Source: an uncultured Pseudobdellovibrionaceae bacterium | GTDB taxonomy: Bacteria > Bdellovibrionota > Bdellovibrionia > Bdellovibrionales > UBA1609 | Assembly: GCA_964628445.1 (NCBI GenBank) | Contig: CAZVOP010000006.1 | Location: 6,723 to 70,722 of the forward strand | DNA length: 64,000 bases | Direction: 5' to 3' | Shown: positions 1-58,536 of the stretch, piece after piece | Layout: each line of letters opens with the position of its first letter | How positions within the stretch are numbered: position 1 is the stretch's first letter | Made by a program: the position numbers and the translations under genes | Notes under the pieces: model-generated | The model's input: the letters and a program-made list of their open reading frames with translations, nothing else | Database searches by the model: none | Told to the model about the DNA's origin: nothing

Positions 1-1
1 T

Positions 2-7374: not shown

Positions 7375-7393
7375 TAATGCTACTCTTCCTGAC

Positions 7394-7924: not shown

Positions 7925-7925
7925 T

Positions 7926-11711: not shown

Positions 11712-12005
11712 ATGAAACTAAATGTCGGGAATGTTTTAACGGAGATCTTTCGCGAACGGCGTTTGACCATAAAGGAAGTTGCCAAAGCCAGCGGCGTTCC
11801 TGCGTCTACTCTCAGCGAATGGAAACTTAACCGTGCCCCAAAGAACCCTGAACAAGCATTGAAGGTCGCCGAGGCCCTCGACATATCCCTACACTTTCTG
11901 CTATTCGGTGTCGAGGACCGGCAAGAGCCTCTACAAAAGCTGCTCAAAGAAGACGTATTTAGCGGCACTTTCGAAATCAACATTAAACGAATCAAGATAA
12001 AATAG
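11712..12005 (+). CDS. XRE-family HTH regulator (Cro/CI-like)
   Basis: LTEIFRERRLTIKEVAKASGVPASTLSEWKLNR is an HTH_3-type motif. 97 aa. Confidence 0.8.
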   Translation: MKLNVGNVLTEIFRERRLTIKEVAKASGVPASTLSEWKLNRAPKNPEQALKVAEALDISLHFLLFGVEDRQEPLQKLLKEDVFSGTFEINIKRIKIK

Positions 12006-12015
12006 GAGAACAGCA

Positions 12016-12648: not shown

Positions 12649-12680
12649 CAAGCTCGACAGATCTGCCCGCAGTCTTCAAA

Positions 12681-13142
12681 TTAAGTTGCGGGTGATTCGG
12701 AGTTATCTTTCGATGATTGTTTTTCTAAATAGCGCAGGTGTGATTGATTGATTACTTGTAGCCTTTTTCTTTCTTCCAAAAGCTCTTCAATTGACCATTC
12801 TTCATATCGGAGCGGAGCTGGCTCCTCCATTACGTTGCCGGCTTTACCAATGGCCCGATCCAAGAGCCTCTCGAATGCACAAGCATTACCCGTTTCTAAA
12901 ATATGCAAAATAATCTTTATTAGGCATAGTTCAATCGCCGCCAAATCTTTAAGTTGGGACTTGGCACGTAGCTCTTCTTCAGTAAGAAAAAAATTCTGAC
13001 TGATATACCGTGAGAGCATTTCCTTACTCAACTCACGGACCACTCGCTCCTCACTGGTGTACGAAGCTCCGCCCTTAGGCCTTCCACCTCGCCTGCCGAT
13101 CTGATTGCCAGCTCTAAAACTCGTTCGATTTTTTTTGCCCAT
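12681..13142 (-). CDS. hypothetical protein with N-terminal GNQxGxxGGRPKG motif (DUF5681 / small-terminase-like?)
   Basis: Start set at MGKKNRTSFRAGNQIGRRGGRPKG (ATG 13142). The basic N-terminal motif resembles phage DUF5681/TerS-like DNA-binding N-termini. The assignment is weak. Confidence 0.4.
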   Translation of the reverse strand: MGKKNRTSFRAGNQIGRRGGRPKGGASYTSEERVVRELSKEMLSRYISQNFFLTEEELRAKSQLKDLAAIELCLIKIILHILETGNACAFERLLDRAIGKAGNVMEEPAPLRYEEWSIEELLEERKRLQVINQSHLRYLEKQSSKDNSESPAT

Positions 13143-13242
13143 ATATAGGCATTCTGCCGGTTCGCTGCGCGGCATGTCAATCGCGCGCTCATCTTATATA
13201 TCCCACTGGCTGAATGAAGAAATTCACAGGAGCGAAGTCCAA

Positions 13243-13920
13243 ATGAAACCCTCTCAAAACACAACCACGCAGGCATGGCTGCCCGCTGAAGCCCAAGCGT
13301 TTTATTCATCGAAGACCTTCAAGGAAGCCCCTTCCCAGTTCTCCTGGATACAATCCCAACATATGAAAAGGGTCTGGCAATGCTTCGACCGTTTACCAAA
13401 GAATCGACGGAAGGAAATCACCAAGTTCATCGAATTGCTTCCGATTATTCTCAAACATTCGCAAGAACGAAAGGCTAAGAAACAAATAAATGACTGGCTT
13501 GGTGAAATTACGAGCGCCGCCGCCAAAATAAAGAGAAACATGGACTTGCTTCAAGAATTTGATGGCTTCTCTTTCGAATTGCCTTCGCATGAGGCCGTAC
13601 TCGAAATTGAGCAGGCGACTGAGTTGCGGTCGAGACAGCTAAACGACGATTTAATTGACCTTTATCTAGGTAAAGAGTTCGCACGCGTTGGCTTTTTTAA
13701 AAAAAAGACGTCAAAAGATGCGGTTGAAATCTATCTAATAAAAACTCTTATCAAATTATTTAAAAAATATTTTAATAAACCTAACTATTTGTTGGCCGGA
13801 ATAACCGCGTTGGTGCTTACAAATAACAATAAATATGTAGATGGTGCTGGAAATTTGGAGATTGATCTCATCAGAGATCGTGCGACAAAACTCGCAAAAA
13901 TAGGGAACATTCCTCTCTAA
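13243..13920 (+). CDS. hypothetical protein
   Basis: The ORF track gives 13105-13920, but its first 46 codons overlap the divergent gene. ATG 13243 has AGGAG 11 nt upstream. No motif recognised. Confidence 0.4.
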   Translation: MKPSQNTTTQAWLPAEAQAFYSSKTFKEAPSQFSWIQSQHMKRVWQCFDRLPKNRRKEITKFIELLPIILKHSQERKAKKQINDWLGEITSAAAKIKRNMDLLQEFDGFSFELPSHEAVLEIEQATELRSRQLNDDLIDLYLGKEFARVGFFKKKTSKDAVEIYLIKTLIKLFKKYFNKPNYLLAGITALVLTNNNKYVDGAGNLEIDLIRDRATKLAKIGNIPL

Positions 13921-13996
13921 ATTTAGCAGAATCGTCTCTACTCCCTTTAAGCCCCTTCGAATAAGTTCGCTCCTTTAAAACAAAGGAGTCAGAATC

Positions 13997-16213: not shown

Positions 16214-16356
16214 AGCCTCACACCGAACTGCAAATTTCTCTAAAATGATTACAAATAACAGGTTAACAGGGTGGCCACCACGCAGCCAAAGTGTCTGGAA
16301 GACAAGCTGTGCGGTGTGCGCTTTCCTTTATTGAACCGTAAATAGGGATCAAGTAC

Positions 16357-16647
16357 ATGGAAGACAAACTATCGGCGTCCAATACTGAACTTGGATTGAT
16401 TGAACGACATAGACTCCATATCAGTCAGCAGTCAGAAATACGTACCAAGTCCGATGGATCTGATAAAGATTGGTTCTTTGAAAATCGAGTGGCTCTTTCG
16501 GTCTCAGAAGCAGCTTTCGCACTAGGTGTATCTGTTCGCACTGTCGAACGAATGATTCGACGAAATGAACTTAGAATCCGCCGCCTAGGCAAACGCATTC
16601 TGATTCCGAAAGAAGAACTTGGAGCATGGCTCAGCCGAAAGGAATGA
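16357..16647 (+). CDS. excisionase/AlpA-type HTH DNA-binding protein
   Basis: LSVSEAAFALGVSVRTVERMIRRNELRIRRLGKRILIPKEEL matches the excisionase-family HTH pattern. It sits immediately upstream of the integrase. Confidence 0.7.
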   Translation: MEDKLSASNTELGLIERHRLHISQQSEIRTKSDGSDKDWFFENRVALSVSEAAFALGVSVRTVERMIRRNELRIRRLGKRILIPKEELGAWLSRKE

Positions 16648-16650
16648 GCT

Positions 16651-17862
16651 ATGTCCAAAATTGATAGAGCAGTGCCCAAACATCCACAGATTTATCGCGT
16701 TCATGATGTCGATAGTCTGGGAAAGATGAGCCCCACAAGCACGTATCGAGTTCGAAAGCGCGTAAAGGTTAACGGCAAGTGGAGTACAAAGGTGACAACC
16801 TTTAGCAGCTTCGAAGACGCCAAACATTTTGCGCGGCAAAAGTTCGACATCAACGTCATGGGTGCAATCCAAATGCGCTTTAGTGAAGTCCTCAGCAAGT
16901 TTTTGCACCATAAAGAATTTGAAGAGCTGCGCGCTCCGGGTACGATTCACGGTTATCGATCAAGAGCTAAGCATTTTAAATTCTTCGATGACCTTTCCAT
17001 GCGCGATATCACACCTCAAGTGATCGACGGATGGGCGAATCTCATGCTTGATCCGCAGTACAAGGCACTTCAACAAAGCTCCAGAGCGGACTACGACCAT
17101 GAACTGACTTTGCTTTCCGCGATCCTGAGATATCATCGCGAGTATTGGGATGAAACTTACGTCGTCCCAATTATGAGACGACACCGAAAGCGGCTTTGCC
17201 CTCATCGAAAATGTAAGGACGAGATTCGCTACCTCTCCGGTGAGCAAGAACTTCTTTTTCTTGAAGCGCTGAAGCCTTGGCCAGTTGTCCACGATATCGC
17301 CTTATTCCAGCTCCATACCGGGGCTCGCATCGGTGAAGCCGCCGCGATGGATTTTGGCGCGGTCGAATTTGTGAAACATCAGGTTCATATTCGACAACAT
17401 CTTCACTGGGACCGAGTTAAGAAGGGGCAAATATCGATCTTAAAGGGCACCAAGGCCGGACCGGATCGAACCGTGCCTCTAACGTCGGAATGTCTTGATA
17501 TGCTTCGCCATCGCTACCAGACACGCTCTGGATCGGTTGTATTCGCCGACCCCAAACGCGTTACTGGGTGGATGCACTACAGGAGTATTCAAGCCATCTA
17601 TGATCGAGCTTTTGAGAGGCTTGGCTTTTCTCACCGTGGAACCCACACCCTTAGACACACTTTCGCCGTTCGCTTTCTCGAACAAACGAAGGACGTCTAT
17701 GCACTTCAGCGGGCGCTTGGACATACGGATCTGGAAATGACGATGAGATATGCGAAGTACTCCAACGATTCCGTGCGAAAAGCGTTTCAAATTTTTCGCG
17801 GTGGAAGAGAAAACGCCAAAGGTGACGTTCCAAATTTGTTACATGGAACAAGCACCCAATGA
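16651..17862 (+). CDS. int: tyrosine recombinase / phage-type integrase
   Basis: The C-terminal catalytic blocks are TGARIGEA, HTLRHTFAVRFL and LGHTDLEMTMRYAKY (R..HxxR..H..Y). It ends 35 nt from the tRNA-Ser 3' end. Confidence 0.9.
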   Translation: MSKIDRAVPKHPQIYRVHDVDSLGKMSPTSTYRVRKRVKVNGKWSTKVTTFSSFEDAKHFARQKFDINVMGAIQMRFSEVLSKFLHHKEFEELRAPGTIHGYRSRAKHFKFFDDLSMRDITPQVIDGWANLMLDPQYKALQQSSRADYDHELTLLSAILRYHREYWDETYVVPIMRRHRKRLCPHRKCKDEIRYLSGEQELLFLEALKPWPVVHDIALFQLHTGARIGEAAAMDFGAVEFVKHQVHIRQHLHWDRVKKGQISILKGTKAGPDRTVPLTSECLDMLRHRYQTRSGSVVFADPKRVTGWMHYRSIQAIYDRAFERLGFSHRGTHTLRHTFAVRFLEQTKDVYALQRALGHTDLEMTMRYAKYSNDSVRKAFQIFRGGRENAKGDVPNLLHGTSTQ

Positions 17863-17896
17863 GTTTTCTAAGTGATTTCAACAGGTCCCAAAGAAC

Positions 17897-17914
17897 TGGC
17901 GGAGAGGGGGGGAT
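17897..17914. repeat. attR: 18-bp repeat within the tRNA-Ser 3' end
   Basis: Identical to 4758-4775. Confidence 0.75.
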
Positions 17915-17989
17915 TTGAACCCCCGGTACAGGTTTACCCTGTACGACAGTTTAGCAAACTGCTGGTTTAAGCCACTCACCCACCTCTCC
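17897..17989 (-). tRNA. tRNA-Ser(GCU): tRNA-Ser (anticodon GCU)
   Basis: The reverse complement folds as acceptor GGAGAGG/CCTCTCC, anticodon stem-loop GCAGT-TTGCTAA-ACTGT, long variable arm, T-arm GGGGG-TTCAAAT-CCCCC, with encoded CCA. Confidence 0.9.
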
Positions 17990-18124
17990 AGCGGGATAAA
18001 CTTGACCGTGAAAAACTGAAGCTGCCATAGGCCCCCCCTAGAATCAAGTGCCCGGAACCCCTAAAGATCCTTGCCTTATGGGCAACTAATGTCTAAAAAC
18101 GTGTTTCCTAATTCAAGGAAATGC

Positions 18125-46531: not shown

Positions 46532-46918
46532 ATGGGAATAAGACTAGTCATAGTGGATGACGCCCCGTTCATCCGCGAAGTTCTTCGGCATACTTTTATG
46601 AGCACCGAAATAGAGATCGTTGGCGAAGCCGCAGACGGCGAAGAGGCGATCGAGGTGGTCACTCGCCTGCGCCCACACGTTGTCCTCATGGACATCGTGA
46701 TGCCTCGTAAAAGCGGCATCGAGGCGGCCTCCGAGCTGACGAAAGCGCTACCGGACATAAAGATCGTGGCATGCTCGACGGTGGATCAAAACAGCATGAT
46801 CATGCGCGCCCTCGAAGCCGGATGCTGCAATTACGTGACGAAACCCTTTCGCGCAGAAGATGTAATTAATGCCGTGCGGAGCGCGGCACTCGGAAAACCC
46901 AAGGAGGCAGGAACATGA
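46532..46918 (+). CDS. single-domain response regulator (CheY-like)
   Basis: LVIVDDAPFIREVL, VLMDIVMPRKSGIEA and the conserved K in TKPF. Confidence 0.85.
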   Translation: MGIRLVIVDDAPFIREVLRHTFMSTEIEIVGEAADGEEAIEVVTRLRPHVVLMDIVMPRKSGIEAASELTKALPDIKIVACSTVDQNSMIMRALEAGCCNYVTKPFRAEDVINAVRSAALGKPKEAGT

Positions 46919-47565: not shown

Positions 47566-47823
47566 CTATCGCTCGGTGGTGCTCTCAGGAGGCGGTCCTT
47601 TACGATTTGGATCCATGATCCAGTCGACAATCTTTTTAGATTCGGCGGCTGAGCGAATGCCCGCGGATTTTGAATTAACGGCGCTCCAGCAATGTCCGTC
47701 GGGGCAGGTCTCACTGATCACGGCTTCGGTCGACCCCTCGCCCGGGGACGTCTCTGCGTAAGTATTAAAGCCCGCCAAAATCATCCCCGCCAAAGCCAAC
47801 TGAAGAACTATAAGTCTATTCAT
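47566..47823 (-). CDS. small secreted protein
   Basis: 85-aa ORF with a signal peptide (LIVLQLALAGMILAGFNTYA). AGGAGG upstream. Confidence 0.35.
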   Translation of the reverse strand: MNRLIVLQLALAGMILAGFNTYAETSPGEGSTEAVISETCPDGHCWSAVNSKSAGIRSAAESKKIVDWIMDPNRKGPPPESTTER

Positions 47824-47832: not shown

Positions 47833-49536
47833 TTAAAGCGGCGTTTCGCTGGTGGCCGGCGCGATGATATCGAGCAGGTTGTTAAATATGCTCGCGACCT
47901 GTACCGCCACGTTCGGACCTTCTTTACTGTCCACTTTCGCGATTTCACCGTCAGACTTGTAAGTCACTTGGATCGTGCCGAGGCCCGGGCGTGAAACAAC
48001 CCATGGTTTGCCGAACTTCGCTTCATATTTAATTTTCACCAATTTTTTGGACTGATCTTCGATCTGCGAGATACGGCCTTGCGGATCATATTGCAACTTT
48101 ACACTTTGCCCTTCGGAAGTGTCGGCGGTGATCAGATTGCATTTTTGCGGCTCATACGCAAATTTCGTGCGCACGGTTTTTATAAGCTTTTCGCTCTTCG
48201 CCTGGGCGGTCTTACGCGTCTGCTTATTGTCGGAAATCGTGTTGTCATCAAAAACCTGGGTCGTTAGCTGCGAAACCTTATTGCAGCTATTCTTGTATTC
48301 AAAAGCCAGGGTACGACCCGGCTCCCTTTTCGTTTTCACGAAGCCATTATCAAAATACGTATAGTCGGTCTTTTGATTGTCGCGCAAAACCGAAATCGGT
48401 TTGCCGAAAGTTTCATGGTACACGATATCTGTCACGCTTGAGTTGATCTCCGTGCGAACCCGGTAAAGATACACGCCCGTGCCATCGGGCCGTGCGCGGT
48501 GGAAGAATTCGTATTTGCTTTGGTTGGTGATTTTTTCGCCGCACTTCTTAACGACGTTCGACCAAAAATGATTTTTAGGGTCGTCTTTGCTTAATTGATA
48601 CTCGTAAGTCTCAATGCAACCCTTGGGATTGCGGAACGACGTGACCCAGTCTTTATCCTTATTGTAGGTCAAAGCTTTGTAGGTATTGTCAAAATCCACG
48701 CGTGTCAGATTGTGGACGTCGTCGTACTGATACTTGAACTTCTTCCCTTTGGAATCGGTGACTTCGGCCAAGTCTTCGCCCTTGATCACGTACTTCGCGT
48801 TCAAATTATTCGGTCCGATGATCTCGGAAACTTTTTTATTTGCCGGATTGTACTTAAAGCTCAACTTACGGCCCAAATTATCGGCCACGCTCTGAAGCGT
48901 GTCGCGCTCCCATGTCAGCTTTAAGTAATTTTGGTTTTTGTCATACATGTGGGTCATGTGGCCCGTAGCCGCATCAAACAATTGGTATGTGCCGTCGCTA
49001 AGCGTGCGCTTGTAAACACCGGCCTTTAGCGTGACATTCTCGGCCTCTTTGCCGTTCGCCAAATACGTCACGCCGTCTTCGACTTTTCCCTTGATGTTCA
49101 TGCGGCGACTGAATTCTTCGCGCATAAAATCATTGGTTTTCAGTTCTTTCTCAAGGTTCGCGGTGTAATCGTCTTTTAAATCGGGACGACGGCGCTTCAC
49201 CTCGGTCATGATCATTTTAATCGTATGATCGACCTTCGCCGGATTGAAATTCTTCGCGGAGAAGATGACTTCCATCCCGCCGCCGCACTCGGTGAGTTTC
49301 ACATTGCTTTCCGGCGTGACCTCGACACGGGTCTCGTAATCCGAACACCAGCCGAATCCGAAGAGCCCATTGAACAACGAGCGGCTGTTGTACGAGCGGT
49401 TTACGCGCAAATCGTATCCAACCCCGGGAACGGTCAGATCCGTCCAGCTTTCCGAATAATTGGCGCTTTTCATGTCGACGATGGCAAAAGCGGACGATGT
49501 AAATAGAAAGGCGAGAGCAAGAAAGATGTTTTTCAT
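47833..49536 (-). CDS. secreted YD/RHS-type repeat protein (short form)
   Basis: Start set at MKNIFLALAFLFTSSAFA (GAGGA upstream). VNRSYNSRSLFNGLFGFGWCSDYE resembles the RxYxS-x(n)-GxFGxGW opening of Rhs/YD proteins. It is followed by YD-like repeats (KFKYQYDDVHNLTRVDF, ALTYNKDKDWVTSF, IETYEY). No Rhs core PxxxxDPxGL or toxin tip was seen. Confidence 0.5.
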   Translation of the reverse strand: MKNIFLALAFLFTSSAFAIVDMKSANYSESWTDLTVPGVGYDLRVNRSYNSRSLFNGLFGFGWCSDYETRVEVTPESNVKLTECGGGMEVIFSAKNFNPAKVDHTIKMIMTEVKRRRPDLKDDYTANLEKELKTNDFMREEFSRRMNIKGKVEDGVTYLANGKEAENVTLKAGVYKRTLSDGTYQLFDAATGHMTHMYDKNQNYLKLTWERDTLQSVADNLGRKLSFKYNPANKKVSEIIGPNNLNAKYVIKGEDLAEVTDSKGKKFKYQYDDVHNLTRVDFDNTYKALTYNKDKDWVTSFRNPKGCIETYEYQLSKDDPKNHFWSNVVKKCGEKITNQSKYEFFHRARPDGTGVYLYRVRTEINSSVTDIVYHETFGKPISVLRDNQKTDYTYFDNGFVKTKREPGRTLAFEYKNSCNKVSQLTTQVFDDNTISDNKQTRKTAQAKSEKLIKTVRTKFAYEPQKCNLITADTSEGQSVKLQYDPQGRISQIEDQSKKLVKIKYEAKFGKPWVVSRPGLGTIQVTYKSDGEIAKVDSKEGPNVAVQVASIFNNLLDIIAPATSETPL

Positions 49537-49546
49537 TGATTGTCCT

Positions 49547-50425
49547 CTACACCTTAATGGTAACAATCTTTTTCATCACGAATAAACCTATTACCTGCAG
49601 GGTTAGCATTAGGGCCAGGCAGACCCAACCCAAAGGCTTGGTGAATAGGGGCATCACATAGTTGGGATCCAAGATCAGAAAAATACCGAGCAGCAGCAGC
49701 GGGACCAAGGTAATGATCACGGCCTGCATCGTTCCTTGCGCCGTTAAGGCTTCGATTTTCTTTTCGACTTTCTGGCGTTCACGAACGGTGGTCACGATTG
49801 TCTGAAAAGTTTCGGCCAGATTACCGCCCGTTTCCTTCAAAATATTCACCGCGGTCACGAACATCTGCACGTCTTGGCGGGGAATGCGCTCGCCGAATTC
49901 ATTCAAAGCTTCTTCCACCGACATACCCAGTCGCACTTTATTCAACACCAACCCGAATTCCTGCGAAATCGGGCCGTTGATGTTCTCCACCACACGCTCC
50001 ATACTTTGCGTTAAGCTTTGCCCGGCTTTGATGCCGTTCGACATGATTGTCATCCCGTCGACCATTTGGTTGATCAGCCGGCTGCAGCGCTTTTCCCACA
50101 AATAGGTCATGATGATTTTGGGGGCGGTCCAGCCAGCCAGCGTAAATGCGCCGCCCAAAATAATGCCCAAAATAAAATGCGGCCAAACCACCAGAAACAT
50201 CAGCGCGCCGACACCAAAGCTTCCGGCGAGCATCGTATAGGTCACTTTCTGGCGATCCGTGGTGATGAACATACGATCCATCAGCTCAAGAACTTCCTCG
50301 CGACTACCCAGGCTTTTGCGGTGCAAGTAATCCAAAATCCGGTCCGAGGTGAAATAGGAAAAGATAAAAACCGTGATTCCGAAGAGCGGAATAAAAATCG
50401 CCTCGTTGCCGATGAAAAAGCTCAT
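49547..50425 (-). CDS. tadB: TadB/TadC-type pilus platform protein (T2SS F family)
   Basis: RLGMSVEEALNEFGERIP ... VNILKETGGNLAETF ... KIEALTAQG with flanking TM helices. ATGA-type overlap with the upstream ATPase gene. Confidence 0.75.
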   Translation of the reverse strand: MSFFIGNEAIFIPLFGITVFIFSYFTSDRILDYLHRKSLGSREEVLELMDRMFITTDRQKVTYTMLAGSFGVGALMFLVVWPHFILGIILGGAFTLAGWTAPKIIMTYLWEKRCSRLINQMVDGMTIMSNGIKAGQSLTQSMERVVENINGPISQEFGLVLNKVRLGMSVEEALNEFGERIPRQDVQMFVTAVNILKETGGNLAETFQTIVTTVRERQKVEKKIEALTAQGTMQAVIITLVPLLLLGIFLILDPNYVMPLFTKPLGWVCLALMLTLQVIGLFVMKKIVTIKV

Positions 50426-52719
50426 GTATGCCCTCCGGTGCCCGTTTTCTTAGGAGGTGCGGCCGGCGCCCCGCCGATGCGCGGAATGGACGGCGGCTTA
50501 GGACCGCCGGCACTCGACGAGTGCTTGGGTTTCGTGGCGGCGGCTTCACTGGAAATAAATAGATTGCGCGGGATACTGACGCCCTTTTGCTCAAATTCTT
50601 CGATGAACGTGGGAATCAATCCCATCGCTTGGAATTGCCCGACGACTTTGCGGTTCTTATCGAAACCTTCTTCTTTAAAGCGAAAAATTTCTTGCAACGT
50701 CACCGTATCGCCCTGCATGCCGCAAACTTCTGTGATGTACATAAGCTTACGTGAACCGTCGGAAAGGCGTGAAATCTGAATGATCAGTTGCACCGCTCCC
50801 GCGATCTGCTCGCGGATGGCTTTTGCCGGAAGCTCCATACCGGCCATCAAGCATAAAGTTTCCAAACGGCTGATCGCTTCGCGCGGCGTGTTCGCGTGGA
50901 CCGTGGTCATCGAGCCGTCGTGACCCGTGTTCATCGCCGCCAACATATCGAGGGCGGCGCCGTCACGGCACTCCCCCACCACGATGCGGTCGGGGCGCAT
51001 ACGCAAAGAGTTTCGAATCAGATCGCGAATGCTGACCTCACCGGTTCCTTCTAAATTCGCGGGCCGGGTCTCCAGTCGCACCACATGCTCTTGTTTCATC
51101 TGCAATTCGGCCGCGTCTTCCACGGTCACAATGCGCTCGTTGGCGGGAATGAAACTCGACATCACATTCAGTAAAGTCGTTTTACCGGAGCCGGTACCGC
51201 CCGAGATAATGATATTCAAACCTTGCTCGACGCAAATTTTTAGAAAGTCCATCATCGGGCGGGTCATCGATCCAAAGCGCTCGACGTAATCTTTGTCGGT
51301 GATGCGCTCTTGCGGGAACTTACGGATCGTCAGTGCGGGTCCGTCAATCGACAGCGGCTCGATGATCGCGTTCACGCGAGATCCATCGGGCAAGCGCGCA
51401 TCGACGTAAGGCGTTCTTTCATCGATACGGCGACCAAGGGGCGCCACAATCCGCTCGATCACGTTACGCAATTGTAAGTTCGAGGTGAACGTCGTTTGCG
51501 AAAGCGTCAACTTGCCGCTTTTCTCCACGTAGATCATATCGCAACCGTTGACCATGATCTCCGTCACGGTCGGATCCGCCAGCAATTCCTCCAGCGGCCC
51601 AAGGCCCAAGGCTTCATCCAAAGTTTCTTTGATCACGCGTGAGCGGTCTTCGCGCGACATGCCCGGCGACAAACGGTCGGTCAAATCCGAGATCGTGCGC
51701 TGAGTTTTGTTTTTCAACTCTCGCGCCTTCACTGGATCGCCGTCGGTCTTCATCACATCGGCCTTCAAGTCCATCTCTTTGATTAGGCCGCTATGAACCT
51801 GCATTTTTAAAAGCGTAAGCGGGCTCAACTGCTTACGTGAACCGCGCTTCGCGTTCTTCGGATCCATCATGCTGGGCAGGCCGGAGCCGCCTGCTTTTTC
51901 CGATGTCCCGCCGCCGACACTTTCCTTGGCGAGGTTGGTGATCTTAGGGCGTGACGCCGTTTTTAATTTTTGTAAGACACCGCCGGTCAGCTTACGCACC
52001 AAATCGTGATAGGCCGATGACATGGGGCTGGTGGGTGCACCGATAACGAAAGGAATCGAGCGCTGAAGCGCGTTCGTCGCCGCGGCGTCATCCTGCGGGA
52101 TCGAGGCCAGCACCGGCCGACGCAAGCTTTGCGCGATGGCGTTGGCATCAAGGCCGCTGCGATTCACTTTATTCAAGCAGATCTGAATGAATTCGCCAGG
52201 CACCGACATCGACAACAAATCGTTCATCAAGCGCCGTGTTTGATTGACCACCAAAACTTCCGGGGTCGTTACGACAAGGATCGCCGTCGCGTCCTCAATC
52301 AATCCGGTTTGCACCGCTTCGAGTTCACTGCCGACATCGACGATAATGTATTTGTAATGCTGGCTCATGGCGCCGATCTGTTTGCGCAATAAATCGACCT
52401 GTACATTGAAGACCTGATCGGGGCCTTGGACCGCGCCGATAAAATTCAATCCCGAGGGATGGGCTGTGACCAGCGCGCTCACCGACTGCGGCGTGATCGC
52501 ACCGGCATAGCTCGCTAGATCCATGACGGTCTTGTGAGGACGAATTCCGGTGATGAAGTTTTGATCCCCGCAGCTTTTCGGATCGCAATCGATCAACAGC
52601 GTTTTGGCTTTCATTTCCTTGATAAAGGCATGCGCAAGATTCGCGGCAAATACGGATTTACCCACGCCGCCTTTGCCGCCGATCACCACGATTAAATGTG
52701 AACTTTCATGAATGGACAA
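50422..52719 (-). CDS. cpaF: fused CpaE/TadZ-like (MinD/ParA-type) ATPase + CpaF/TadA secretion ATPase
   Basis: The N-terminal ~250 aa has IVVIGGKGGVGKSVFAANLA (deviant Walker A) ... IIVDVG. The C-terminal ~400 aa has VTEIMVNG ... IIISGGTGSGKTTLLN ... RPDRIVVGECRDGAALDML ... TGHDGSMTTVHAN. It is a single uninterrupted 765-codon frame with a TTG start. Confidence 0.8.
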   Translation of the reverse strand: MSIHESSHLIVVIGGKGGVGKSVFAANLAHAFIKEMKAKTLLIDCDPKSCGDQNFITGIRPHKTVMDLASYAGAITPQSVSALVTAHPSGLNFIGAVQGPDQVFNVQVDLLRKQIGAMSQHYKYIIVDVGSELEAVQTGLIEDATAILVVTTPEVLVVNQTRRLMNDLLSMSVPGEFIQICLNKVNRSGLDANAIAQSLRRPVLASIPQDDAAATNALQRSIPFVIGAPTSPMSSAYHDLVRKLTGGVLQKLKTASRPKITNLAKESVGGGTSEKAGGSGLPSMMDPKNAKRGSRKQLSPLTLLKMQVHSGLIKEMDLKADVMKTDGDPVKARELKNKTQRTISDLTDRLSPGMSREDRSRVIKETLDEALGLGPLEELLADPTVTEIMVNGCDMIYVEKSGKLTLSQTTFTSNLQLRNVIERIVAPLGRRIDERTPYVDARLPDGSRVNAIIEPLSIDGPALTIRKFPQERITDKDYVERFGSMTRPMMDFLKICVEQGLNIIISGGTGSGKTTLLNVMSSFIPANERIVTVEDAAELQMKQEHVVRLETRPANLEGTGEVSIRDLIRNSLRMRPDRIVVGECRDGAALDMLAAMNTGHDGSMTTVHANTPREAISRLETLCLMAGMELPAKAIREQIAGAVQLIIQISRLSDGSRKLMYITEVCGMQGDTVTLQEIFRFKEEGFDKNRKVVGQFQAMGLIPTFIEEFEQKGVSIPRNLFISSEAAATKPKHSSSAGGPKPPSIPRIGGAPAAPPKKTGTGGHT

Positions 52720-52793: not shown

Positions 52794-54296
52794 CTAGTTC
52801 TGGTCTAGACGAAACTTGCGTTTGATTTTGTCGCTTCCCGCGCTGGCCGAGCTTTTAATGATCGGCGTGACAAAGACCACGAACTGGCTTTGATTGCGGC
52901 GGAAATCTTTAGAGGCATAAAGTGAAATCAACGGGTTTTTGCTGGCGCCCGCGGGCAGCTTATTGAAGTTCGTACCGCTATCGTTGGTGATCAAACCGCC
53001 GACTGCGGCACTTTGCCCGCTGCGTATGTGCAATACCGTCTGGATTTCGCGTGAAGCCGTCAATGGACCTTGGTCCGAGTAGCTGAGCAAAGATTTTACC
53101 GCGAAATTCAGCGCCAACTTAACGGAGTCGGAACGAGCGCCCATAATTTGCGGCGTAACGTTGGTGCGGATACCCGTTTCCTCGAAGTTCGTCGAAGGCT
53201 GTCCCTGTCCGTTAACAACTTGGTATGGCAGACGGGTCAATGAGTTGATCACGCCCTGTTTGCCGTCTTCCACGGTCACGCTTGAACTTTGCAAAACGCG
53301 CGCGAAGCCATGCTGCTTCGCCCAGTTCAATTTCGGCAACAGGTTTGAGATCGTACCGGTAATCGTCGTCGCAATGCCTCCCGGATTGCGACCGCCGCTT
53401 GAGAATTCAATCCCCGAGCTGTCGCCGATGTCCGGCATCCACTGAAAACGGAAGGACTTACTGTAATCTTTCTGCAATTCAACGTAGTGGACCACCATCT
53501 GCACGATCTTGCTGGGCTCGCCTTCGGGCGGCGGGCGCACGGCGATCAAGTTGATGACCACGTCAACTTTTCTCTCCAAAACCTTTTTGTCGGCCACAGC
53601 TTCGTCAACGACCACATCGGGCACGTACATCTTGGCGACGATCTCGGCTTTGTCTTTTTCTTCACGCGTGTTGGCGAAACCCTCGAGAATGAACTTGCCG
53701 TTGACGGCATTCACCCGGATTTCGGGGTTACCGACTTTGCGCTCGATGAACTGCGCGATCTTGTTTTGCGCGATCGGGCTCAAGACGACCAAAGAAGTCG
53801 CTTGTCCGCCGTACTGCTTAACGACCGAGTGGATACGCTTCATATCCGACGGCAAAAGAATCTGGCCGTCGACCACGATCTTGTTGTTCAGCATTTTGAT
53901 CGAGATGCCTTCGATCCCCTGAAGCAAAGCTTGGATCTCGCGCGCGACCTTTTGCAAGTCGGTCTTCTTCACGTCGATCGTGTATTCCGCCAAAACTTTC
54001 CCGGTCGACGGGTTTTTGATGATCAAGGTTCCCACGCCCACCGCACGCGGATTAAAACGTAAGGTCTTGGATTCCGGATTCCATTGAATACGGGTGAGCT
54101 TGCGGAAGGTTCCGTCCAAGTCGATCTTGGCCGGAAGTTCTTCCAGCGGTTCATCATGATAGATACCGATCGAGAGATTCAGGTAGCTCTTCGTTCTGTC
54201 CCCTTCGACTTCCTGCCCATGCGCGATGGGCAGCGCGAACCATGAAGCCAGCACAAGAGTGAGGACCGAGATTTTACATACCGTTTTCATACTCAC
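52794..54296 (-). CDS. cpaC: CpaC/RcpA secretin
   Basis: Signal peptide. The C-terminal secretin block is LQSSSVTVEDGKQGVINS ... GGLITNDSG ... QSQFVVFVTPIIK. Confidence 0.8.
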   Translation of the reverse strand: MSMKTVCKISVLTLVLASWFALPIAHGQEVEGDRTKSYLNLSIGIYHDEPLEELPAKIDLDGTFRKLTRIQWNPESKTLRFNPRAVGVGTLIIKNPSTGKVLAEYTIDVKKTDLQKVAREIQALLQGIEGISIKMLNNKIVVDGQILLPSDMKRIHSVVKQYGGQATSLVVLSPIAQNKIAQFIERKVGNPEIRVNAVNGKFILEGFANTREEKDKAEIVAKMYVPDVVVDEAVADKKVLERKVDVVINLIAVRPPPEGEPSKIVQMVVHYVELQKDYSKSFRFQWMPDIGDSSGIEFSSGGRNPGGIATTITGTISNLLPKLNWAKQHGFARVLQSSSVTVEDGKQGVINSLTRLPYQVVNGQGQPSTNFEETGIRTNVTPQIMGARSDSVKLALNFAVKSLLSYSDQGPLTASREIQTVLHIRSGQSAAVGGLITNDSGTNFNKLPAGASKNPLISLYASKDFRRNQSQFVVFVTPIIKSSASAGSDKIKRKFRLDQN

Positions 54297-54301: not shown

Positions 54302-55177
54302 CTATAAATCGATGAACGGACCTTTTTTCTTCGGCTTCGGCGGCGGCGCCGGAGGCGGAGGCGGACTCGCGGGAGCCCGCTGCTGCAAATTCAGCATTTC
54401 CTGGGATACTTTTCCTAATAAGGATTCGATCGTCGATTCGGGGAAGCGCTTCTTGGTGTGATCCGAAGGATGGCGCAGAGTTAGGAAGATCGAGCCCGGC
54501 GAGGTCGAAAGCAGATAAATCAAATCTTGCGATTCTTCGGGCGAAGCTTCGATCGTGATGGTCGCGAAGTTCATATCCCCGCGCAACGGGATCACCTGCC
54601 AGGCGTCTTTGCCTTGCTTTTCAAGAGTCGCGGGCAATTCGTTGGAAATACGGACCCCCGTGGAAAGCACCACTACGTCTTGCATAAGCGTTTTGACTTC
54701 GCGGTGTTGGGCCACGCCCTTTCCGACATCCAGCGCGGCGATAATATCGATGCGATCGCCTGGATTTAAAAGCTTTGCGACCGCATTGGTTTCGTTAACC
54801 GGCACGGCCAAGGCACGTTTACTGGGTGAAACCTGAAGCGACAATCCGGTTACGGGACCGGGCCGAATCACTTTACTTTGCAAGACCTGTTCACCCATTT
54901 TGATGGGTGCAAGCGCGATCATTCCGACCGCGGGCTCGGGATCGCTGAATGCGCCGGGCTCGACGAAGTCCATCGGCTTTTCTTCGACTTTCAACATCGT
55001 TTCGTCGACTGTTTCCATCTCATTAATGTCGCGAATCGCTACGACAACGTTTTGTTTCGCGCCGAATTTCTTCTGTAGCTCCGCACTCTTGTCTTGCGTG
55101 TAACTATAAAGAAGGAAGACCGCGAACAGCGCGCTTCCCACCGATATCCACAACGTCCTGGTTTCATTCTGGTTCAC
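54302..55177 (-). CDS. cpaB: CpaB/RcpC pilus assembly protein
   Basis: N-terminal TM, SAF-like VVVAIRDINEMETVDETML, and a C-terminal Pro-rich tail. Confidence 0.7.
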   Translation of the reverse strand: MNQNETRTLWISVGSALFAVFLLYSYTQDKSAELQKKFGAKQNVVVAIRDINEMETVDETMLKVEEKPMDFVEPGAFSDPEPAVGMIALAPIKMGEQVLQSKVIRPGPVTGLSLQVSPSKRALAVPVNETNAVAKLLNPGDRIDIIAALDVGKGVAQHREVKTLMQDVVVLSTGVRISNELPATLEKQGKDAWQVIPLRGDMNFATITIEASPEESQDLIYLLSTSPGSIFLTLRHPSDHTKKRFPESTIESLLGKVSQEMLNLQQRAPASPPPPPAPPPKPKKKGPFIDL

Positions 55178-55189: not shown

Positions 55190-55687
55190 TTAGTTCCCAC
55201 AATTCGCATTCAGGCAAATCCCGTAACCAACCATCACCCATGCGGGGTTCACGTTGATTCGTTCGTTGCGCGGTAATATTTCAAAAATCTGTTGGTTATG
55301 CGTCTCACCACTGGTGTCGCTTGAGGCGACCGACCGTCCAAGGGCGATGGGCCTGGTCGTGGCAATGAACTTCTCACGCAAGTCGCTCTCATGGTTAATG
55401 GCATGGAAACGCCAGCCCTTTTTCGAATAGCTAATCGGGCGCGTAAGACCGGAGCCGTTTTCGCGGAAGTAGTAAAGGTTCGCGCGCTGGCGGAAAGTTT
55501 CGAACGCATAAGTTCGCGCGCCGATCGAGTGCAATACGGCAGTATGTACGATTCCAAAAAAGCCCATGCCGAAACTGGTGAGCACGACAAAAATCACGAG
55601 CAACGGAACGGTTTCCAGCATCGCCAGACCCTTTTCGTTACGCAAAATTTGCGATGCTCTCAATTTCTTCATCTCAACATCCGTCAT
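55190..55687 (-). CDS. TadE-like minor pilin/pseudopilin
   Basis: EKGLAMLETVPLLVIFVVL fits the TadE N-terminal motif (G-x4-E + hydrophobic helix). Confidence 0.55.
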   Translation of the reverse strand: MTDVEMKKLRASQILRNEKGLAMLETVPLLVIFVVLTSFGMGFFGIVHTAVLHSIGARTYAFETFRQRANLYYFRENGSGLTRPISYSKKGWRFHAINHESDLREKFIATTRPIALGRSVASSDTSGETHNQQIFEILPRNERINVNPAWVMVGYGICLNANCGN

Positions 55688-56288
55688 CTGACATAGGAAA
55701 ATATCCGTTCGTGCTGGTTCCCGTGCTGTACGAAGAACCGCCCGTCACTGAAAGATTGCGAATCGCCGTCCAGCGGGCGGCCGTGAACGCCAAACATTCT
55801 TCCGTTGTGGGTTCGCGCCCCAAATAGGACCCCATATACGTCTTGAAACCGCTGCCATCTTCGTCGCCGTCGGGAACGGTCGTACCGAAGAAAGGGATCT
55901 TGAAAGCAAGAACCGCCGCGGTGAACGACGTACCGACGCCCCAAAAATTATTTGTGTCTTGGGCGGCCGTCGCGTATCCGTCGATAATTTTCGTGTGATC
56001 GCCGATAGTGGGCTCGGCATCGACTTTAAACCAGCCGTTGCTATAGAGAGGCTTAAACACCGGATGACCGATCAACTCTTTATACTTAGCGGCGCCGCGC
56101 TTTTCTTGTTCTTCCTTCGTGATATGCGCGACTCCATAATTCCGGGCCGCCGCAAAGGTGATGTATTGAGTGACCGAGGCCAGTGAGAGTGTGAAAGTCA
56201 AAACGAACATCAACGACGCCAATCCCAAAATCAACACCATCGAGAAAACAAAATCCACCGTGAGAATACCGCGCTCGTTTCTGATCAC
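55674..56288 (-). CDS. TadE/TadG-like minor pilin
   Basis: Start reassigned to GTG 56288, with GGAGGAGG 4 nt upstream and a GTGA overlap with the preceding gene. The N-terminus is VIRNERGILTVDFVFSMVLILGL. The first 93 codons of ORF 55674-56567 are out-of-frame overlap with the neighbouring gene. Confidence 0.5.
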   Translation of the reverse strand: MIRNERGILTVDFVFSMVLILGLASLMFVLTFTLSLASVTQYITFAAARNYGVAHITKEEQEKRGAAKYKELIGHPVFKPLYSNGWFKVDAEPTIGDHTKIIDGYATAAQDTNNFWGVGTSFTAAVLAFKIPFFGTTVPDGDEDGSGFKTYMGSYLGREPTTEECLAFTAARWTAIRNLSVTGGSSYSTGTSTNGYFPMSDDGC

Positions 56289-56560
56289 TGCGCCTCCTCC
56301 CCGGTAATAACGATATGCCGGCCGTGACCGTTGGGATGCATGATCGCCCCCGCCTGCGGCGTCGCCCAAACTCCGTTTTGCAACATGCCCGAAAGGGTTT
56401 GCCATGGGCCCGTAATAATTTGTTTTAAAACGTCTTGGTCTTTGAAGTAATTGGCCACGGCGAAAGTGAATCCCACCAGCATAACTATAATCAAAATCGC
56501 TTCGGTGATCCCTTGACCGGCCTGTGAACGAAGACTCGGAAGTTTGCGCGCCGGCTTCAT
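56285..56560 (-). CDS. Flp/TadE-type prepilin-like protein
   Basis: Start at MKPARKL (ATGA overlap with the cpaA stop). SQAGQGITEAILIIVMLVGF has a G/xxxE processing-type motif. Confidence 0.45.
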   Translation of the reverse strand: MKPARKLPSLRSQAGQGITEAILIIVMLVGFTFAVANYFKDQDVLKQIITGPWQTLSGMLQNGVWATPQAGAIMHPNGHGRHIVITGEEAQ

Positions 56561-57051
56561 AATCCACCCGTCACCCGCATGTAAGTGAGTTGTGTCAGCC
56601 AACCCAGAAGCAAGGCGAAGGTATAGGGGATCTTGTGCAGGTGTTGCGCTTCGATCTTCTGCCTTTGTCCAACCTTGGTCGTATTTTTTACGACCGCAAG
56701 CAGTTGATTGGACAATGCCGCGCGCGTAACACCGAACAATGCGCCCCAGATGAAAGAGTAAATTAAGGTCCAGAACATGGTGAGCGGATTCACCGCAAGC
56801 GCGAACACCGCAAACAGCTTCACGTCGCCGCCGCCTAAAACTCTAAAGGCAAATAAAGGAATCGTTAAAATCAAAGCCAACAGCAACGTGCCGATGCCGG
56901 TCATGAATCCTTCGATTCCCAAAAAATAGAAATTTGCGAGCACCACGGCCGGAAGCAAGGACAATACGAGGACGTTGTGAACTTTGCGCGAACGCAAGTC
57001 ATCCACCATACCGGCAACCAACGTAAATGTGGCAACGCCCAACATAACCAT
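56557..57051 (-). CDS. cpaA: prepilin peptidase CpaA/TadV (A24 family)
   Basis: GMVDDLRSRKVHN and GGGDVKLF are the two Asp boxes, and the protein is polytopic. Start at ATG 57051 (TGATG overlap with the upstream ORF). Confidence 0.75.
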   Translation of the reverse strand: MVMLGVATFTLVAGMVDDLRSRKVHNVLVLSLLPAVVLANFYFLGIEGFMTGIGTLLLALILTIPLFAFRVLGGGDVKLFAVFALAVNPLTMFWTLIYSFIWGALFGVTRAALSNQLLAVVKNTTKVGQRQKIEAQHLHKIPYTFALLLGWLTQLTYMRVTGGL

Positions 57052-57269
57052 CAGTTTCCCCCCGATGGACCGTCCGGCTTCGTCCACGTCACACCGAGGC
57101 CGTCTTTCGAGGTGCGAAATCCATCTCCAGTGGAAATGTTTCTCTCAACTCGAGCAGCTAAGCGGGGAGCTGATTTCTTGAAGGTCTCGATAGGACCAAG
57201 ATCCCCAAGAAAAGCTCCTAAGACTAAAAAAGCGTAAATGCCCAATAAGAGCACTAGCTCGACTGTCAT
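57051..57269 (-). CDS. small hydrophobic-N-terminus protein (leaderless pilin-like?)
   Basis: 72 aa. MTVELVLLLGIYAFLVLGAF resembles a mature Flp N-terminus (TEYxLLL) without a leader. Confidence 0.4.
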   Translation of the reverse strand: MTVELVLLLGIYAFLVLGAFLGDLGPIETFKKSAPRLAARVERNISTGDGFRTSKDGLGVTWTKPDGPSGGN

Positions 57270-57295: not shown

Positions 57296-57484
57296 TTACT
57301 GAACCGTAAAGCCGCCGATAGCTCCACCGAGTTCCTCAAGTTTTGCCGTCAATGTTTCCGTGATTTTACCGCGGAACAATAGCGCCAGAGCCACAACCAC
57401 AACGAGCAACAAGATGTACTCGGTCGCGCCTTGGCCGGATTCGTCTTTCCACAAATTCTTAAGCATGGATGTCATGTTCTTCAT
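57296..57484 (-). CDS. flp: Flp family type IVb pilin
   Basis: DESGQGATEYILLLVVVVALALLF is the textbook Flp motif (G/ATEYxLL). 62 aa. Confidence 0.85.
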   Translation of the reverse strand: MKNMTSMLKNLWKDESGQGATEYILLLVVVVALALLFRGKITETLTAKLEELGGAIGGFTVQ

Positions 57485-57699: not shown

Positions 57700-58536
57700 G
57701 TGGAATTCTCAATTCGAGACGAGCAAACGGCAGCCGGGCTTCTGTGCAACCAGCGCGGCCAGGGTATCGTCGAATACATTCTGACATTGATCATCGGCGT
57801 CTCGCTGATCCTTGGCGGCATGTATCAACTCAACTCCGCTTTTAAAGGTTGGGCGACAAATTATTTTGGGACATACTTAGCTTGTTTACTTGAGGCCGGC
57901 GAATTGCCGAGCATCTCGGGCACCGGCGGCGACAGCGGTGTTTGCAATCAATTGTTCAAGCCTTTCACCTTGGCTGAAGGCCGCCCGTTAAAACCCGGCA
58001 CAAATTCCGGCGCGGAAAAAGGCAGCACCGGAACCGGAGGCGCGGCGAGCGAGAAAGTCGCGGGCTCATCCACCGTTGGCGGTGGCGGCGGTTCATACGG
58101 AGGAGGCCGCGCATTCGGCCGCGGCTCGACTTCGCGTGGAATCGCCGCAAAAGGCTCGCGCGGCAAGGGTGCCGGCGCAACTTTTACCGGCAGTACGGAG
58201 GCCGGCGATTATGGCGGCGGTTACTCAAACACCAGAAAAAAACTCGATGTGCGGGTGAAGAAAAATTTGGATAACCGTTTTGCCTTCGACGACGAACGCG
58301 ACAAGCCGGAAAAGCGCAAGGCAATGAGTTCGTTCCGCAAACCGAGCGAAGAAGGCGGTAAAGCACCACGCATCCGCGTTAAGAAAACGGACAAGAAACG
58401 TGACATCGCCGCACAAGAAGACACAGGTCTGAACATTCCAAACTTTCTGCGCTATTTGATTATTGCGGGAATCATCGTCGCGCTTGTGGTGTTCCTCGGG
58501 GGACAAACTCTGCAAATCGGAAAGTCGATGGACTAA
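57700..58536 (+). CDS. Gly/Lys-rich protein with N-terminal Flp-like processing motif and C-terminal TM
   Basis: GTG start. NQRGQGIVEYILTLIIGVSLILGG is Flp-like. The centre is G-rich low complexity, followed by a basic segment and a C-terminal TM (LIIAGIIVALVVFLGG). It is divergent from the flp operon. Confidence 0.5.
   Translation: MEFSIRDEQTAAGLLCNQRGQGIVEYILTLIIGVSLILGGMYQLNSAFKGWATNYFGTYLACLLEAGELPSISGTGGDSGVCNQLFKPFTLAEGRPLKPGTNSGAEKGSTGTGGAASEKVAGSSTVGGGGGSYGGGRAFGRGSTSRGIAAKGSRGKGAGATFTGSTEAGDYGGGYSNTRKKLDVRVKKNLDNRFAFDDERDKPEKRKAMSSFRKPSEEGGKAPRIRVKKTDKKRDIAAQEDTGLNIPNFLRYLIIAGIIVALVVFLGGQTLQIGKSMD

Follow-up and report, generated by a model that had tools for sequence, protein, structure and literature searches.

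The tad locus and its genes

The gene under study, tadZA, lies in the window (the whole stretch of DNA that was analysed, 64 kb in length) within a tad/flp locus that also encodes a platform protein, a secretin, RcpC, a Flp-like pilin and an A24 peptidase. A contig search with a single-sequence query gave four close relatives, all from Pseudobdellovibrionaceae/Bdellovibrionaceae MAGs (L001-L004), with which the locus is compared below. The genes are:

47833..49566, minus strand: RHS/YD-repeat protein, at the position of Bd0109 in the hit locus of Bdellovibrio bacteriovorus HD100 (Pfam RHS_repeat and DUF6531; syntenic in L001-L004)
49547..50425, minus strand: tadB, T2SSF platform protein (Pfam T2SSF, E 1.7e-20)
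50422..52719, minus strand: tadZA, 765-aa TadZ/MinD-like ATPase joined to a CpaF/TadA motor (coordinates include the stop codon)
52794..54296, minus strand: rcpA/cpaC secretin (Pfam Secretin and BON; syntenic in L001-L004)
54302..55177, minus strand: rcpC/cpaB (Pfam RcpC and SAF; syntenic in L001-L004)
55190..56602, minus strand: TadE/F-like candidate pseudopilins, two or three in number (ORFs 55190-55687, 55674-56567 and 56285-56602; starts uncertain)
56557..57087, minus strand: 176-aa prepilin peptidase of the A24 type, TadV/CpaA-like (Pfam Peptidase_A24 with 49.4 bits, cut-off 26.5)
57296..57484, minus strand: Flp-type pilin, 62 aa, with a G/ATEY-type motif and then a hydrophobic segment (translation GQGATEYILLLVVVVALALL)

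The gene order flp, TadV-like peptidase, pseudopilins, rcpC, rcpA, tadZA, tadB and RHS is kept in the four MAGs. The Flp-type pilin is 84-90% identical in L001, L002 and L004, and the TadV-like peptidase, which carries the motifs DDLRSRKVHN and GGGDVK, is 63-77% identical in all four relatives. Each of the pseudopilin candidates has a hydrophobic N-terminal segment after G/..E-type motifs and is conserved in L001-L004; searches for a family assignment, Pfam among them, gave no match. The ATG of tadB overlaps the stop codon of tadZA (ATGA), matching the tadZA-tadB operon described in HD100, and the 64-kb window contains no tadC or second T2SSF paralogue, in line with the location of tadC elsewhere in HD100 (10.64898/2026.07.08.737194). 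Neither a standalone TadZ-like gene nor a second CpaF is found within the window, and no Min or flagellar genes (MinC/MinE partners) lie near tadZA, the context of which is tad.

Domain organization of TadZA

The tadZA ORF is unbroken over 765 codons, as the original prediction had it, and starts with TTG. Homologues in the alignment share the N-terminal pattern 'MAIHE..HLIAV', which supports the TTG start. The identical NCBI protein (P0001) is called with 755 aa, 10 residues fewer, and covers 99% of the query, as would be expected if its start lay about 10 codons downstream of the TTG. With domains assigned by Pfam and NCBIfam, the protein is organized from the N- to the C-terminus as follows:

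51952..52698, minus strand: ParA/MinD-fold (TadZ-like) domain, residues 8-256 (AF2 pLDDT ~90, Foldseek, profile against PDB)
52654..52680, minus strand: deviant Walker A of the sequence GGKGGVGKS (residues 14-22), in which Lys16 is the signature lysine and Lys21 that of the P-loop
51823..51945, minus strand: flexible inter-domain linker, residues ~259-299, Gly/Ser/Lys-rich and variable (pLDDT, alignment, composition)
51607..51822, minus strand: conserved helical N-region of the CpaF part, residues ~300-371 (AF2 helices, alignment, Foldseek)
50554..51594, minus strand: CpaF/TadA NTD and CTD, ATPase core, residues 376-722 (phmmer, Foldseek, invariant motifs)
50425..50547, minus strand: disordered Pro/Gly/Lys-rich C-terminal tail, residues 725-765 (pLDDT <50, composition)

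The N-terminal domain matches Pfam CbiA/ParA-MinD (PF01656) at residues 10-217 (E 7e-16) and is predicted by AF2 with a pLDDT of ~90-92. By Foldseek its top match is 3ea0 (TMq 0.82 / TMt 0.88), followed by FlhG and MinD, and the three together span TMq 0.73-0.82 and TMt 0.77-0.89. The prediction of an N-terminal, CpaE/TadZ-like ATPase of the MinD type is borne out at the level of structure, and its deviant Walker A KGGVGKS is intact within residues 14-22. A receiver-like domain had been said to be absent and, indeed, Pfam finds neither Response_reg nor TadZ_N in TadZA and the fold begins at residue 8. Hydrophobic moments revealed no clear C-terminal membrane-targeting helix in the domain; residues 246-256 (GGVLQKLKTAS) have a moment of 0.31, compared to 0.33-0.45 in MinD helices, and are unremarkable within the domain.

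The original prediction placed a linker of ~90 aa between the two ATPases. A flexible linker exists, residues 259-295 having a pLDDT <50 in the AF2 model and occupying variable alignment columns, but the remainder of the proposed stretch is part of the motor: residues ~300-371 form helices (300-315, 318-324, 329-350 and 356-371 in the AF2 model) that are conserved among homologues, and we assign them to the CpaF part because they align with the N-terminal part of the solved Caulobacter CpaF. A Pfam scan of residues 246-385 alone gave no family, and PF27713, which is precomputed on many homologues, was unmatched there.

The remainder of the motor is equally clear. Pfam T2SSE (PF00437) is found at residues 371-656 (E 9e-62; 209 bits, cut-off 24.9), and the CpaF Walker A GGTGSGKT (residues 507-514), together with many core residues, is invariant across 40-56 homologues. 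The closest solved relative of this part is Caulobacter CpaF: using phmmer, residues 343-708 match 8rjf with 402 bits and E 4e-119, and 8rkd and 9e24 likewise with E ~4e-119; in Foldseek, the C-terminal part aligns with 8rjf over 417 columns of the 424-residue chain (E 1e-41, 45% identity), and FlaI and GspE score far below CpaF. Residues ~300-722 thus comprise the helical N-region, the NTD and the CTD, i.e. the complete CpaF domain that had been proposed. The Pro-rich tail was also correctly recognized: its 41 residues include 8 Pro and 7 Gly, they are predicted to be disordered, and the pattern 'GPKPPSIPRI...PPKKTGTGG' is common to close relatives in the alignment. The pTM of 0.55 for the AF2 model of full-length TadZA makes this model no reliable guide to the packing between the two domains.

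Distribution of the fusion and earlier descriptions

Of the 395 homologues retrieved, 288 have both domains in N-to-C order, and so do at least 68 of the 150 top representatives of clusters at 50% identity. By the source names of the retrieved proteins, the fusion extends over entries labelled Bdellovibrionota, Bacteriovoracia, Elusimicrobiota and Omnitrophota. Annotations of both domains can already be found in databases ('COG4962,COG0455'; 'CpaF family ATPase/MinD-like ATPase'). A variant with a receiver domain also exists, one relative (P0382) consisting of receiver, ParA and CpaF domains. In a quick NJ tree of 150 CpaF domains based on BLOSUM distances, fusions are scattered among non-fusions, no pure clade is larger than 18 members and the smallest clade with all fusions is the whole tree; this tree decides neither for one nor for several origins of the fusion, because the method is too crude and the CpaF domain too conserved.

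The original prediction knew of no characterised example, and on this point it does not stand. A 'TadZA fusion ATPase' has been characterised in B. bacteriovorus HD100 (Tesseur, Denise, Santin & Laloux, July 2026 bioRxiv 10.64898/2026.07.08.737194). The HD100 protein lacks a receiver domain, is essential for prey invasion and has a polar bias, its TadZ part plus linker binds the polar hub RomR in the POLAR assay, and the tagged protein is of full length and redistributes from pole to pole in less than a second (10.64898/2026.07.08.737194). Also in 2026, a paper on Peredibacter noted a CpaE domain in CpaF and described the cpaBCF cluster as one that all predatory Bdellovibrionota conserve (PMC13147790). 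Given that TadZA has been described in Bdellovibrio and that the fusion is common in several phyla, the tadZA of the window is an ordinary member of a known, multi-phylum fusion type. A wide spread together with an earlier description is also what the original prediction had named as its refutation.

Proposed role of TadZA and alternative explanations

Combining domain organization, locus context and conservation with the published work, we are highly confident that tadZA encodes the TadZA-type ATPase of a Bdellovibrio-like bacterium and lies in its main tad (Flp pilus) locus beside the RHS gene of the hit locus. We suggest a model with three elements: (i) the C-terminal ~425 residues, as a complete CpaF/TadA, would form a hexamer that drives extension and retraction of the Flp pilus via the TadB/TadC platform, (ii) the N-terminal ~250 residues would be a TadZ/CpaE-type ParA/MinD ATPase that has lost its receiver-like domain, and (iii) by homology with B. 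bacteriovorus TadZA, the N-terminal module together with the ~40-residue linker would anchor the motor through a polar hub (RomR in HD100), which would place assembly of the pilus machine at the invasive pole. Covalent joining fixes the two parts at a 1:1 ratio, i.e. six TadZ modules per hexamer; the tethered modules could form three ATP-dependent sandwich dimers or, alternatively, an outer cytoplasmic ring. [quoted passage not shown] Essentiality, polar bias and RomR binding have been demonstrated in HD100, and we infer by analogy that they would extend to the organism of the window.

The N-terminal module could instead be a passive adaptor, nucleotide-bound and non-cycling, in which case the fusion would merely tether the motor to a landmark without ATP-driven switching. 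Such a state has already been proposed for classical TadZ, and RomR binding was mapped to TadZ plus linker without any appeal to ATPase activity (10.64898/2026.07.08.737194). Moreover, the P-loop lysine has been lost from 74 of the 165 distant fusions, all of which retain the architecture, and this shows that the fusion in itself can do without hydrolysis by the N-terminal domain. The picture differs in the clade of tadZA itself: the complete Walker A of this domain, KGGxGK[ST], is present in 122 of 123 close-clade fusions compared to 60 of the 165 distant ones, GGKGGVGKS is invariant in an alignment of 28 homologues, and in the same alignment of close homologues D44, D46, D128 and N183 are invariant and K184 is nearly so. 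This conservation points to selection on nucleotide chemistry. The sub-second movement of HD100 TadZA between the poles is, likewise, typical of cycling ParA/MinD proteins and speaks against a passive module. We consider passive tethering possible but rather unlikely. Since TadZA keeps the P-loop lysine that is absent from 3ea0 and from many distant fusions, its N-terminal domain may function in a manner closer to MinD than to classical TadZ.

A second alternative is that the N-terminal module has its origin outside TadZ/CpaE, namely as a MinD/FlhG-type paralogue that was independently recruited and merely occupies the position of TadZ. A deviant Walker A of canonical form, in which both lysines are present, and the missing ARD would fit such an origin, as would the best named NCBIfam matches (78 bits for archaeal MinD and 73 bits for the actinobacterial Ssd/CpaE homologue, neither reaching its cut-off) and the non-monophyly of fusions in the crude NJ tree. 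In the profile search of the domain against PDB, E. rectale TadZ (3fkq, E 2e-10) also scores below archaeal MinD (1ion and 1hyq, ~6e-29 to 1e-28). In the same search, however, the top match is 3ea0 (E 2.9e-42), which leads by fold as well; its entry is labelled only 'ParA family ATPase', and we take it to be the TadZ ATPase domain of Chlorobium tepidum. The Walker A of 3ea0, KGGDGGS, is of the TadZ type K/RGGxGxS/T, distant collinear fusions have a TadZ-type Walker A without the P-loop lysine, and the relative with receiver, ParA and CpaF domains amounts to a full TadZ fused to TadA. The module also occupies the exact position of tadZ relative to tadA in a locus with no other tadZ. Independent recruitment from MinD/FlhG is improbable, and we favor descent of the N-terminal module from TadZ/CpaE.

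A sequencing or assembly artefact, i.e. a frameshift or lost stop codon that joins separate tadZ and tadA genes into one ORF, is ruled out for practical purposes: its sole support is the prior expectation from classical tad loci, in which the two genes are separate and adjacent, whereas tblastn gives a single in-frame alignment (residues 1-748, 84-85% identity) in each of the four independently assembled MAG contigs, the reading frame is conserved on either side of the domain junction, the two domains are together in hundreds of homologues and in the 68 or more cluster representatives counted above, the 120 best homologues (67-100% identity) all have ~740-775 aa bar two, and the HD100 fusion was expressed, tagged and seen at full length (10.64898/2026.07.08.737194). 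The two short homologues (657 and 680 aa; one is named 'partial') show the T2SSE domain alone.

More tentatively, the TadZ-TadA fusion may be one of the main forms of the Tad motor rather than a peculiarity of Bdellovibrio, a form that spans several phyla and arose repeatedly or spread horizontally, and of which the Bdellovibrionota clade alone kept a fully competent MinD-type nucleotide switch, the tethered N-terminal domains acting as an ATP-driven clutch or oscillator that links the choice of pole to the motor. We regard this scenario as possible but rather unlikely; if true, it would go beyond the single 'atypical' protein of the preprint.

By itself, the tadZA of the window matters little. 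It is an ordinary copy, of orthologue type, and in B. bacteriovorus the fusion has already been given a name, localised in the cell, studied by depletion and mapped for its interactions. Small additions to that picture are the complete Walker A in the Bdellovibrionota-like clade and the TadV-like peptidase inside the locus. Of possible use to researchers on Tad systems are the commonness of the fusion and its reach into proteins labelled Elusimicrobiota and Omnitrophota, the receiver variants and the lysine contrast. The predator clade with both Walker A lysines and the many fusions without the P-loop lysine constitute a natural comparative series, with which one can ask whether nucleotide cycling of the positioning module matters to the motor.

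Comparison with known systems

The closest parallel is TadZA of HD100 (Bd0111, tad locus 1), in which a TadZ without ARD, a flexible linker and TadA are likewise combined in one polypeptide. In HD100 the operon is bd0108-bd0109(RHS)-bd0110-bd0111(tadA) (PMC3818213). The locus of the window is syntenic with this hit/tad locus 1: in both, tadB is next to tadZA, tadC is absent from the locus, the RHS gene of the hit locus adjoins and rcpA/rcpC lie upstream. On the basis of architecture, synteny and taxonomy, TadZA is probably an orthologue-type counterpart of Bd0111. The organisms differ, the closest relatives of TadZA being from Pseudobdellovibrionaceae/Bdellovibrionaceae MAGs, and the window has a TadV-like A24 peptidase, whereas no canonical TadV is reported for the tad loci of HD100 (10.64898/2026.07.08.737194).

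Compared to Caulobacter crescentus CpaF (8rjf, 8rkd and 9e24), all of residues ~300-722 align, including the helical N-region, the NTD, the CTD and the intact Walker A. In contrast, the N-terminus of the Caulobacter protein is disordered and CpaE is encoded by a separate gene, whereas the N-terminus of TadZA is a folded ParA/MinD domain; the Pro/Gly-rich tail of TadZA also extends past the stretch that aligns with the solved chains.

With TadZ/CpaE (3fkq and 3ea0), TadZA shares the ParA/MinD fold, the location directly 5' of tadA and the Walker A, KGGVGKS matching the TadZ consensus K/RGGxGxS/T as quoted for HD100 (10.64898/2026.07.08.737194). It differs in that the N-terminal atypical receiver domain is missing, the P-loop lysine is kept and a covalent link connects the module to TadA. 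MinD and FlhG (FleN) resemble it in fold (TMq 0.73-0.77) and in the complete deviant Walker A, and TadZA is set apart from them by its tad context; a C-terminal membrane-targeting helix, if there is one, does not stand out.

TadZA is a genuine fusion protein

The TadZA fusion is real, has already been named and characterised, and is widespread. In the window it is encoded by a single uninterrupted frame of 765 codons (50422..52719, minus strand), for which Pfam and NCBIfam agree on a two-part layout: in Pfam, residues 10-217 match CobQ/CobB/MinD/ParA and residues 371-656 match T2SSE, and in NCBIfam, MinD and Ssd/CpaE-homologue models lie over the N-terminal 250 residues and TadA, VirB11 and TrbB-type models over the C-terminal half. 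A TTG start at 52719 is supported because the resulting N-terminus, MSIHESSHLIVV, agrees with the conserved MAIHE..HLIAV of aligned homologues and because a GGGGGG run lies 9 nt upstream of the TTG. The identical NCBI protein (P0001, 755 aa, 99% query coverage) is consistent with a start ~10 codons downstream of the TTG (region 52690-52719, minus strand), which would truncate the first beta-strand. At the other end, the stop of tadZA and the start of the following gene share bases in an ATGA.

A frameshift near 51900-52000, raised as a possible artefact in the original prediction, is ruled out because residues 1-748 align as one in-frame segment with 84-85% identity (tblastn) in each of L001-L004, contigs from independently assembled MAGs labelled Pseudobdellovibrionaceae, Bdellovibrionaceae or Bdellovibrionales, because the best 120 homologues (67-100% identity) have ~740-775 residues and both Pfam domain sets, bar two (657 and 680 aa, T2SSE only, one named 'partial'), and because the N-domain precedes the CpaF domain in 288 of the 395 retrieved proteins.

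Domain anatomy

An AlphaFold2 model of the protein (56 homologues as input, mean pLDDT 82) gives the following segments.

Segments of the TadZA protein in the AlphaFold2 model
Residues 8-256: compact alpha/beta domain
Residues 259-295: disordered stretch
Residues 300-371: four helices
Residues 376-470: CpaF N-terminal domain
Residues 475-722: ATPase domain
Residues 725-765 (window 50425-50547, minus strand): disordered tail

The predicted linker of ~90 residues therefore divides in two: ~40 residues between the domains are variable, flexible and Gly/Ser/Lys-rich by alignment and composition and stand as a linker, and the ~70 that follow do not, being conserved helices of the CpaF part; the phmmer match to Caulobacter CpaF starts at query residue 343. 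Three Caulobacter CpaF entries match the C-terminal half at 402 bits, with FlaI, GspE and VirB11 far lower, and its Foldseek alignment covers 417 columns of the 424-residue 8rjf chain. Its Walker A motif GGTGSGKT does not vary in the homologue alignments, nor do dozens of residues of the core. By sequence comparison this half is unambiguously a complete CpaF/TadA, as had been proposed. The Pro-rich tail likewise exists: its 41 residues include 8 Pro and 7 Gly, fall outside the stretch alignable with solved Caulobacter CpaF, and display a GPKPPSIPRI...PPKKTGTGG pattern common to close relatives, possibly a short linear motif that a partner protein recognises.

At the N-terminus, the deviant Walker A motif GGKGGVGKS occupies residues 14-22, and no stretch able to be a receiver domain lies upstream of it, so that on this point too the feature had been accurately described. 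The N-domain modelled by itself (pLDDT 92) has as its top structural match 3ea0, labelled as a 'ParA family ATPase' of Chlorobium tepidum (TMq 0.82, TMt 0.88, rmsd 2.2-2.4 Å), followed by FlhG, MinD and FleN. In a search with the N-domain profile, 3ea0 has E 2.9e-42, against 6e-29 to 1e-28 for 1ion and 1hyq (archaeal MinD) and 2e-10 for 3fkq (TadZ of E. rectale). 3ea0 is reported to be the ATPase domain of C. tepidum TadZ. Its Walker A, KGGDGGS, is of the TadZ-type K/RGGxGxS/T form quoted in a preprint on TadZA of B. bacteriovorus HD100 (bioRxiv 10.64898/2026.07.08.737194).

In the clade of the window, delimited by N-domain identity to the query of 50% or more, KGGxGK[ST] is present in 122 of 123 sequences; D44, D46, D128 and N183 are invariant, and K184 nearly so, in a 28-sequence alignment of close homologues. 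The Walker A motif is complete in 60 of the 165 fusions that are more distant; another 74 keep the signature Lys and no longer have the P-loop Lys (for instance AKGGVGQT or AKGGLGRS). Since motif and residues are so well kept in the predator clade, selection there probably maintains genuine nucleotide chemistry in the N-domain, which would fit the fast pole-to-pole dynamics described for HD100 TadZA.

Distribution of the fusion

Phmmer, run exhaustively over 1.84 billion representatives of 50%-identity clusters, recovered the complete N-then-C architecture in 68 of the best 150; the 39 of these that were aligned share 36-68% identity with the query. The source names are Bacteriovoracia, Bdellovibrionota, Bdellovibrionales, Bdellovibrionaceae and Pseudobdellovibrionaceae, to which a profile of distant members adds Elusimicrobiota/Endomicrobiales, Omnitrophota and unclassified bacteria. 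In a diverse alignment, T2SSE is found in 40/40 members and a CbiA match at E <= 1e-5 in 30/40. The reservation that such fusions might already be annotated proved right: a Tara member carries 'COG4962,COG0455 K03609,K02283' and a JGI member 'Flp pilus assembly CpaF family ATPase/MinD-like ATPase...'. In the JGI metagenome protein P0382 (853 aa), receiver, ParA/MinD and T2SSE/CpaF parts follow one another, so that TadZ is joined to TadA at its full length; such an intermediate is of use in working out the origin of the fusion lacking the receiver-like domain (ARD).

Four proteins of the representative library (P0121, P0124, P0126 and P0161; 1156-1605 aa) have two to four tandem CpaF-like stretches and could be real tandem motors or artefacts of gene calling or assembly.

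The tad locus

The locus reads 5' to 3' on the minus strand.

Genes of the tad locus (all minus strand)
57296-57484: Flp-type pilin
57051-57269: small ORF
56557-57087: A24 prepilin-peptidase-like gene (TadV/CpaA-like, Peptidase_A24), 176 aa
55190-56602: two or three pseudopilin-like ORFs
54302-55177: rcpC/cpaB
52794-54296: rcpA/cpaC secretin
50422-52719: tadZA
49547-50425: tadB
47833-49566: RHS/DUF6531 protein

The entire order is kept in all four relatives, and nowhere in the 64-kb window is there a separate TadZ-like gene, another CpaF or another T2SSF (tadC). The A24 peptidase contains the two Asp motifs expected of it (DDLRSRKVHN, GGGDVK) and is 63-77% identical in L001-L004.

The divergently oriented ORF at 57700-58536 (plus strand, 278 aa) encodes an unusually long pilin-like protein, in which a Flp-like N-terminus, GQGIVEYILTLIIGVSLI, precedes an extended stretch rich in Gly, Ser and Lys, with a hydrophobic segment at the C-terminus. 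Neither Pfam nor NCBIfam gives a match for it, and L001, L002 and L004 all keep it. After the RHS gene, an 85-aa ORF (47566-47823, minus strand) has a hydrophobic, signal-peptide-like N-terminus and no match in L001-L004 (tblastn, E<1e-5). A CheY-like single-domain response regulator (46532-46918, plus strand, 128 aa) lies ~650 bp beyond it, with two other small ORFs between. G+C is 0.41-0.48 in window 1-18000 and 0.50-0.55 in the remainder, and this first segment could be horizontally acquired.

A model for TadZA and comparison with HD100

The original prediction knew of no characterised example, and here it has been overtaken. In the preprint, HD100 TadZA has a flexible linker and, at its N-terminus, a TadZ region bearing a Walker A-like motif, lacks the ARD and is termed atypical; tadZA could not be deleted, CRISPRi against tadZA-tadB blocked prey invasion, TadZ plus linker was necessary and sufficient for binding the polar hub RomR, and TadZA-msfGFP shuttled rapidly between the poles and favoured the invasive one (10.64898/2026.07.08.737194). 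The accessible part of the preprint holds no survey of the fusion across taxa, and the word 'Bdellovibrionota' is absent from its text; the breadth described here is a modest addition rather than a discovery about the window.

The domains, motifs, boundaries, context and conservation of tadZA are observed directly, and by analogy we infer that essentiality, polarity and RomR binding, demonstrated by others in HD100, carry over to the window organism. As to stoichiometry and geometry, the CpaF part would form the hexameric motor beneath the TadB/TadC platform, with six TadZ modules tethered around it on ~40-residue leashes; these modules may associate in twos, as ATP sandwich dimers, or make up an outer cytoplasmic ring, and the TadZ plus linker surface would dock the assembly to a polar hub. 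In Caulobacter an outer cytoplasmic ring has been seen by cryo-ET, for which a PleC-PodJ complex with possible CpaE participation is the authors' speculation (PMC12637624).

The window locus has the same arrangement as reported for HD100, in which bd0108, bd0109 (RHS), bd0110 and bd0111 (called TadA) are co-transcribed (PMC3818213) and tadC (bd0470) sits elsewhere (PMC3818213; 10.64898/2026.07.08.737194). The RHS/DUF6531 gene 3' of tadB agrees in position with bd0109, and the 85-aa ORF is by position a candidate equivalent of bd0108. In contrast, the window locus holds a TadV/CpaA-like peptidase, whereas HD100 is described as lacking a canonical TadV in its tad loci and using PilD instead (10.64898/2026.07.08.737194); either the lineages differ or a small HD100 homologue has been overlooked.
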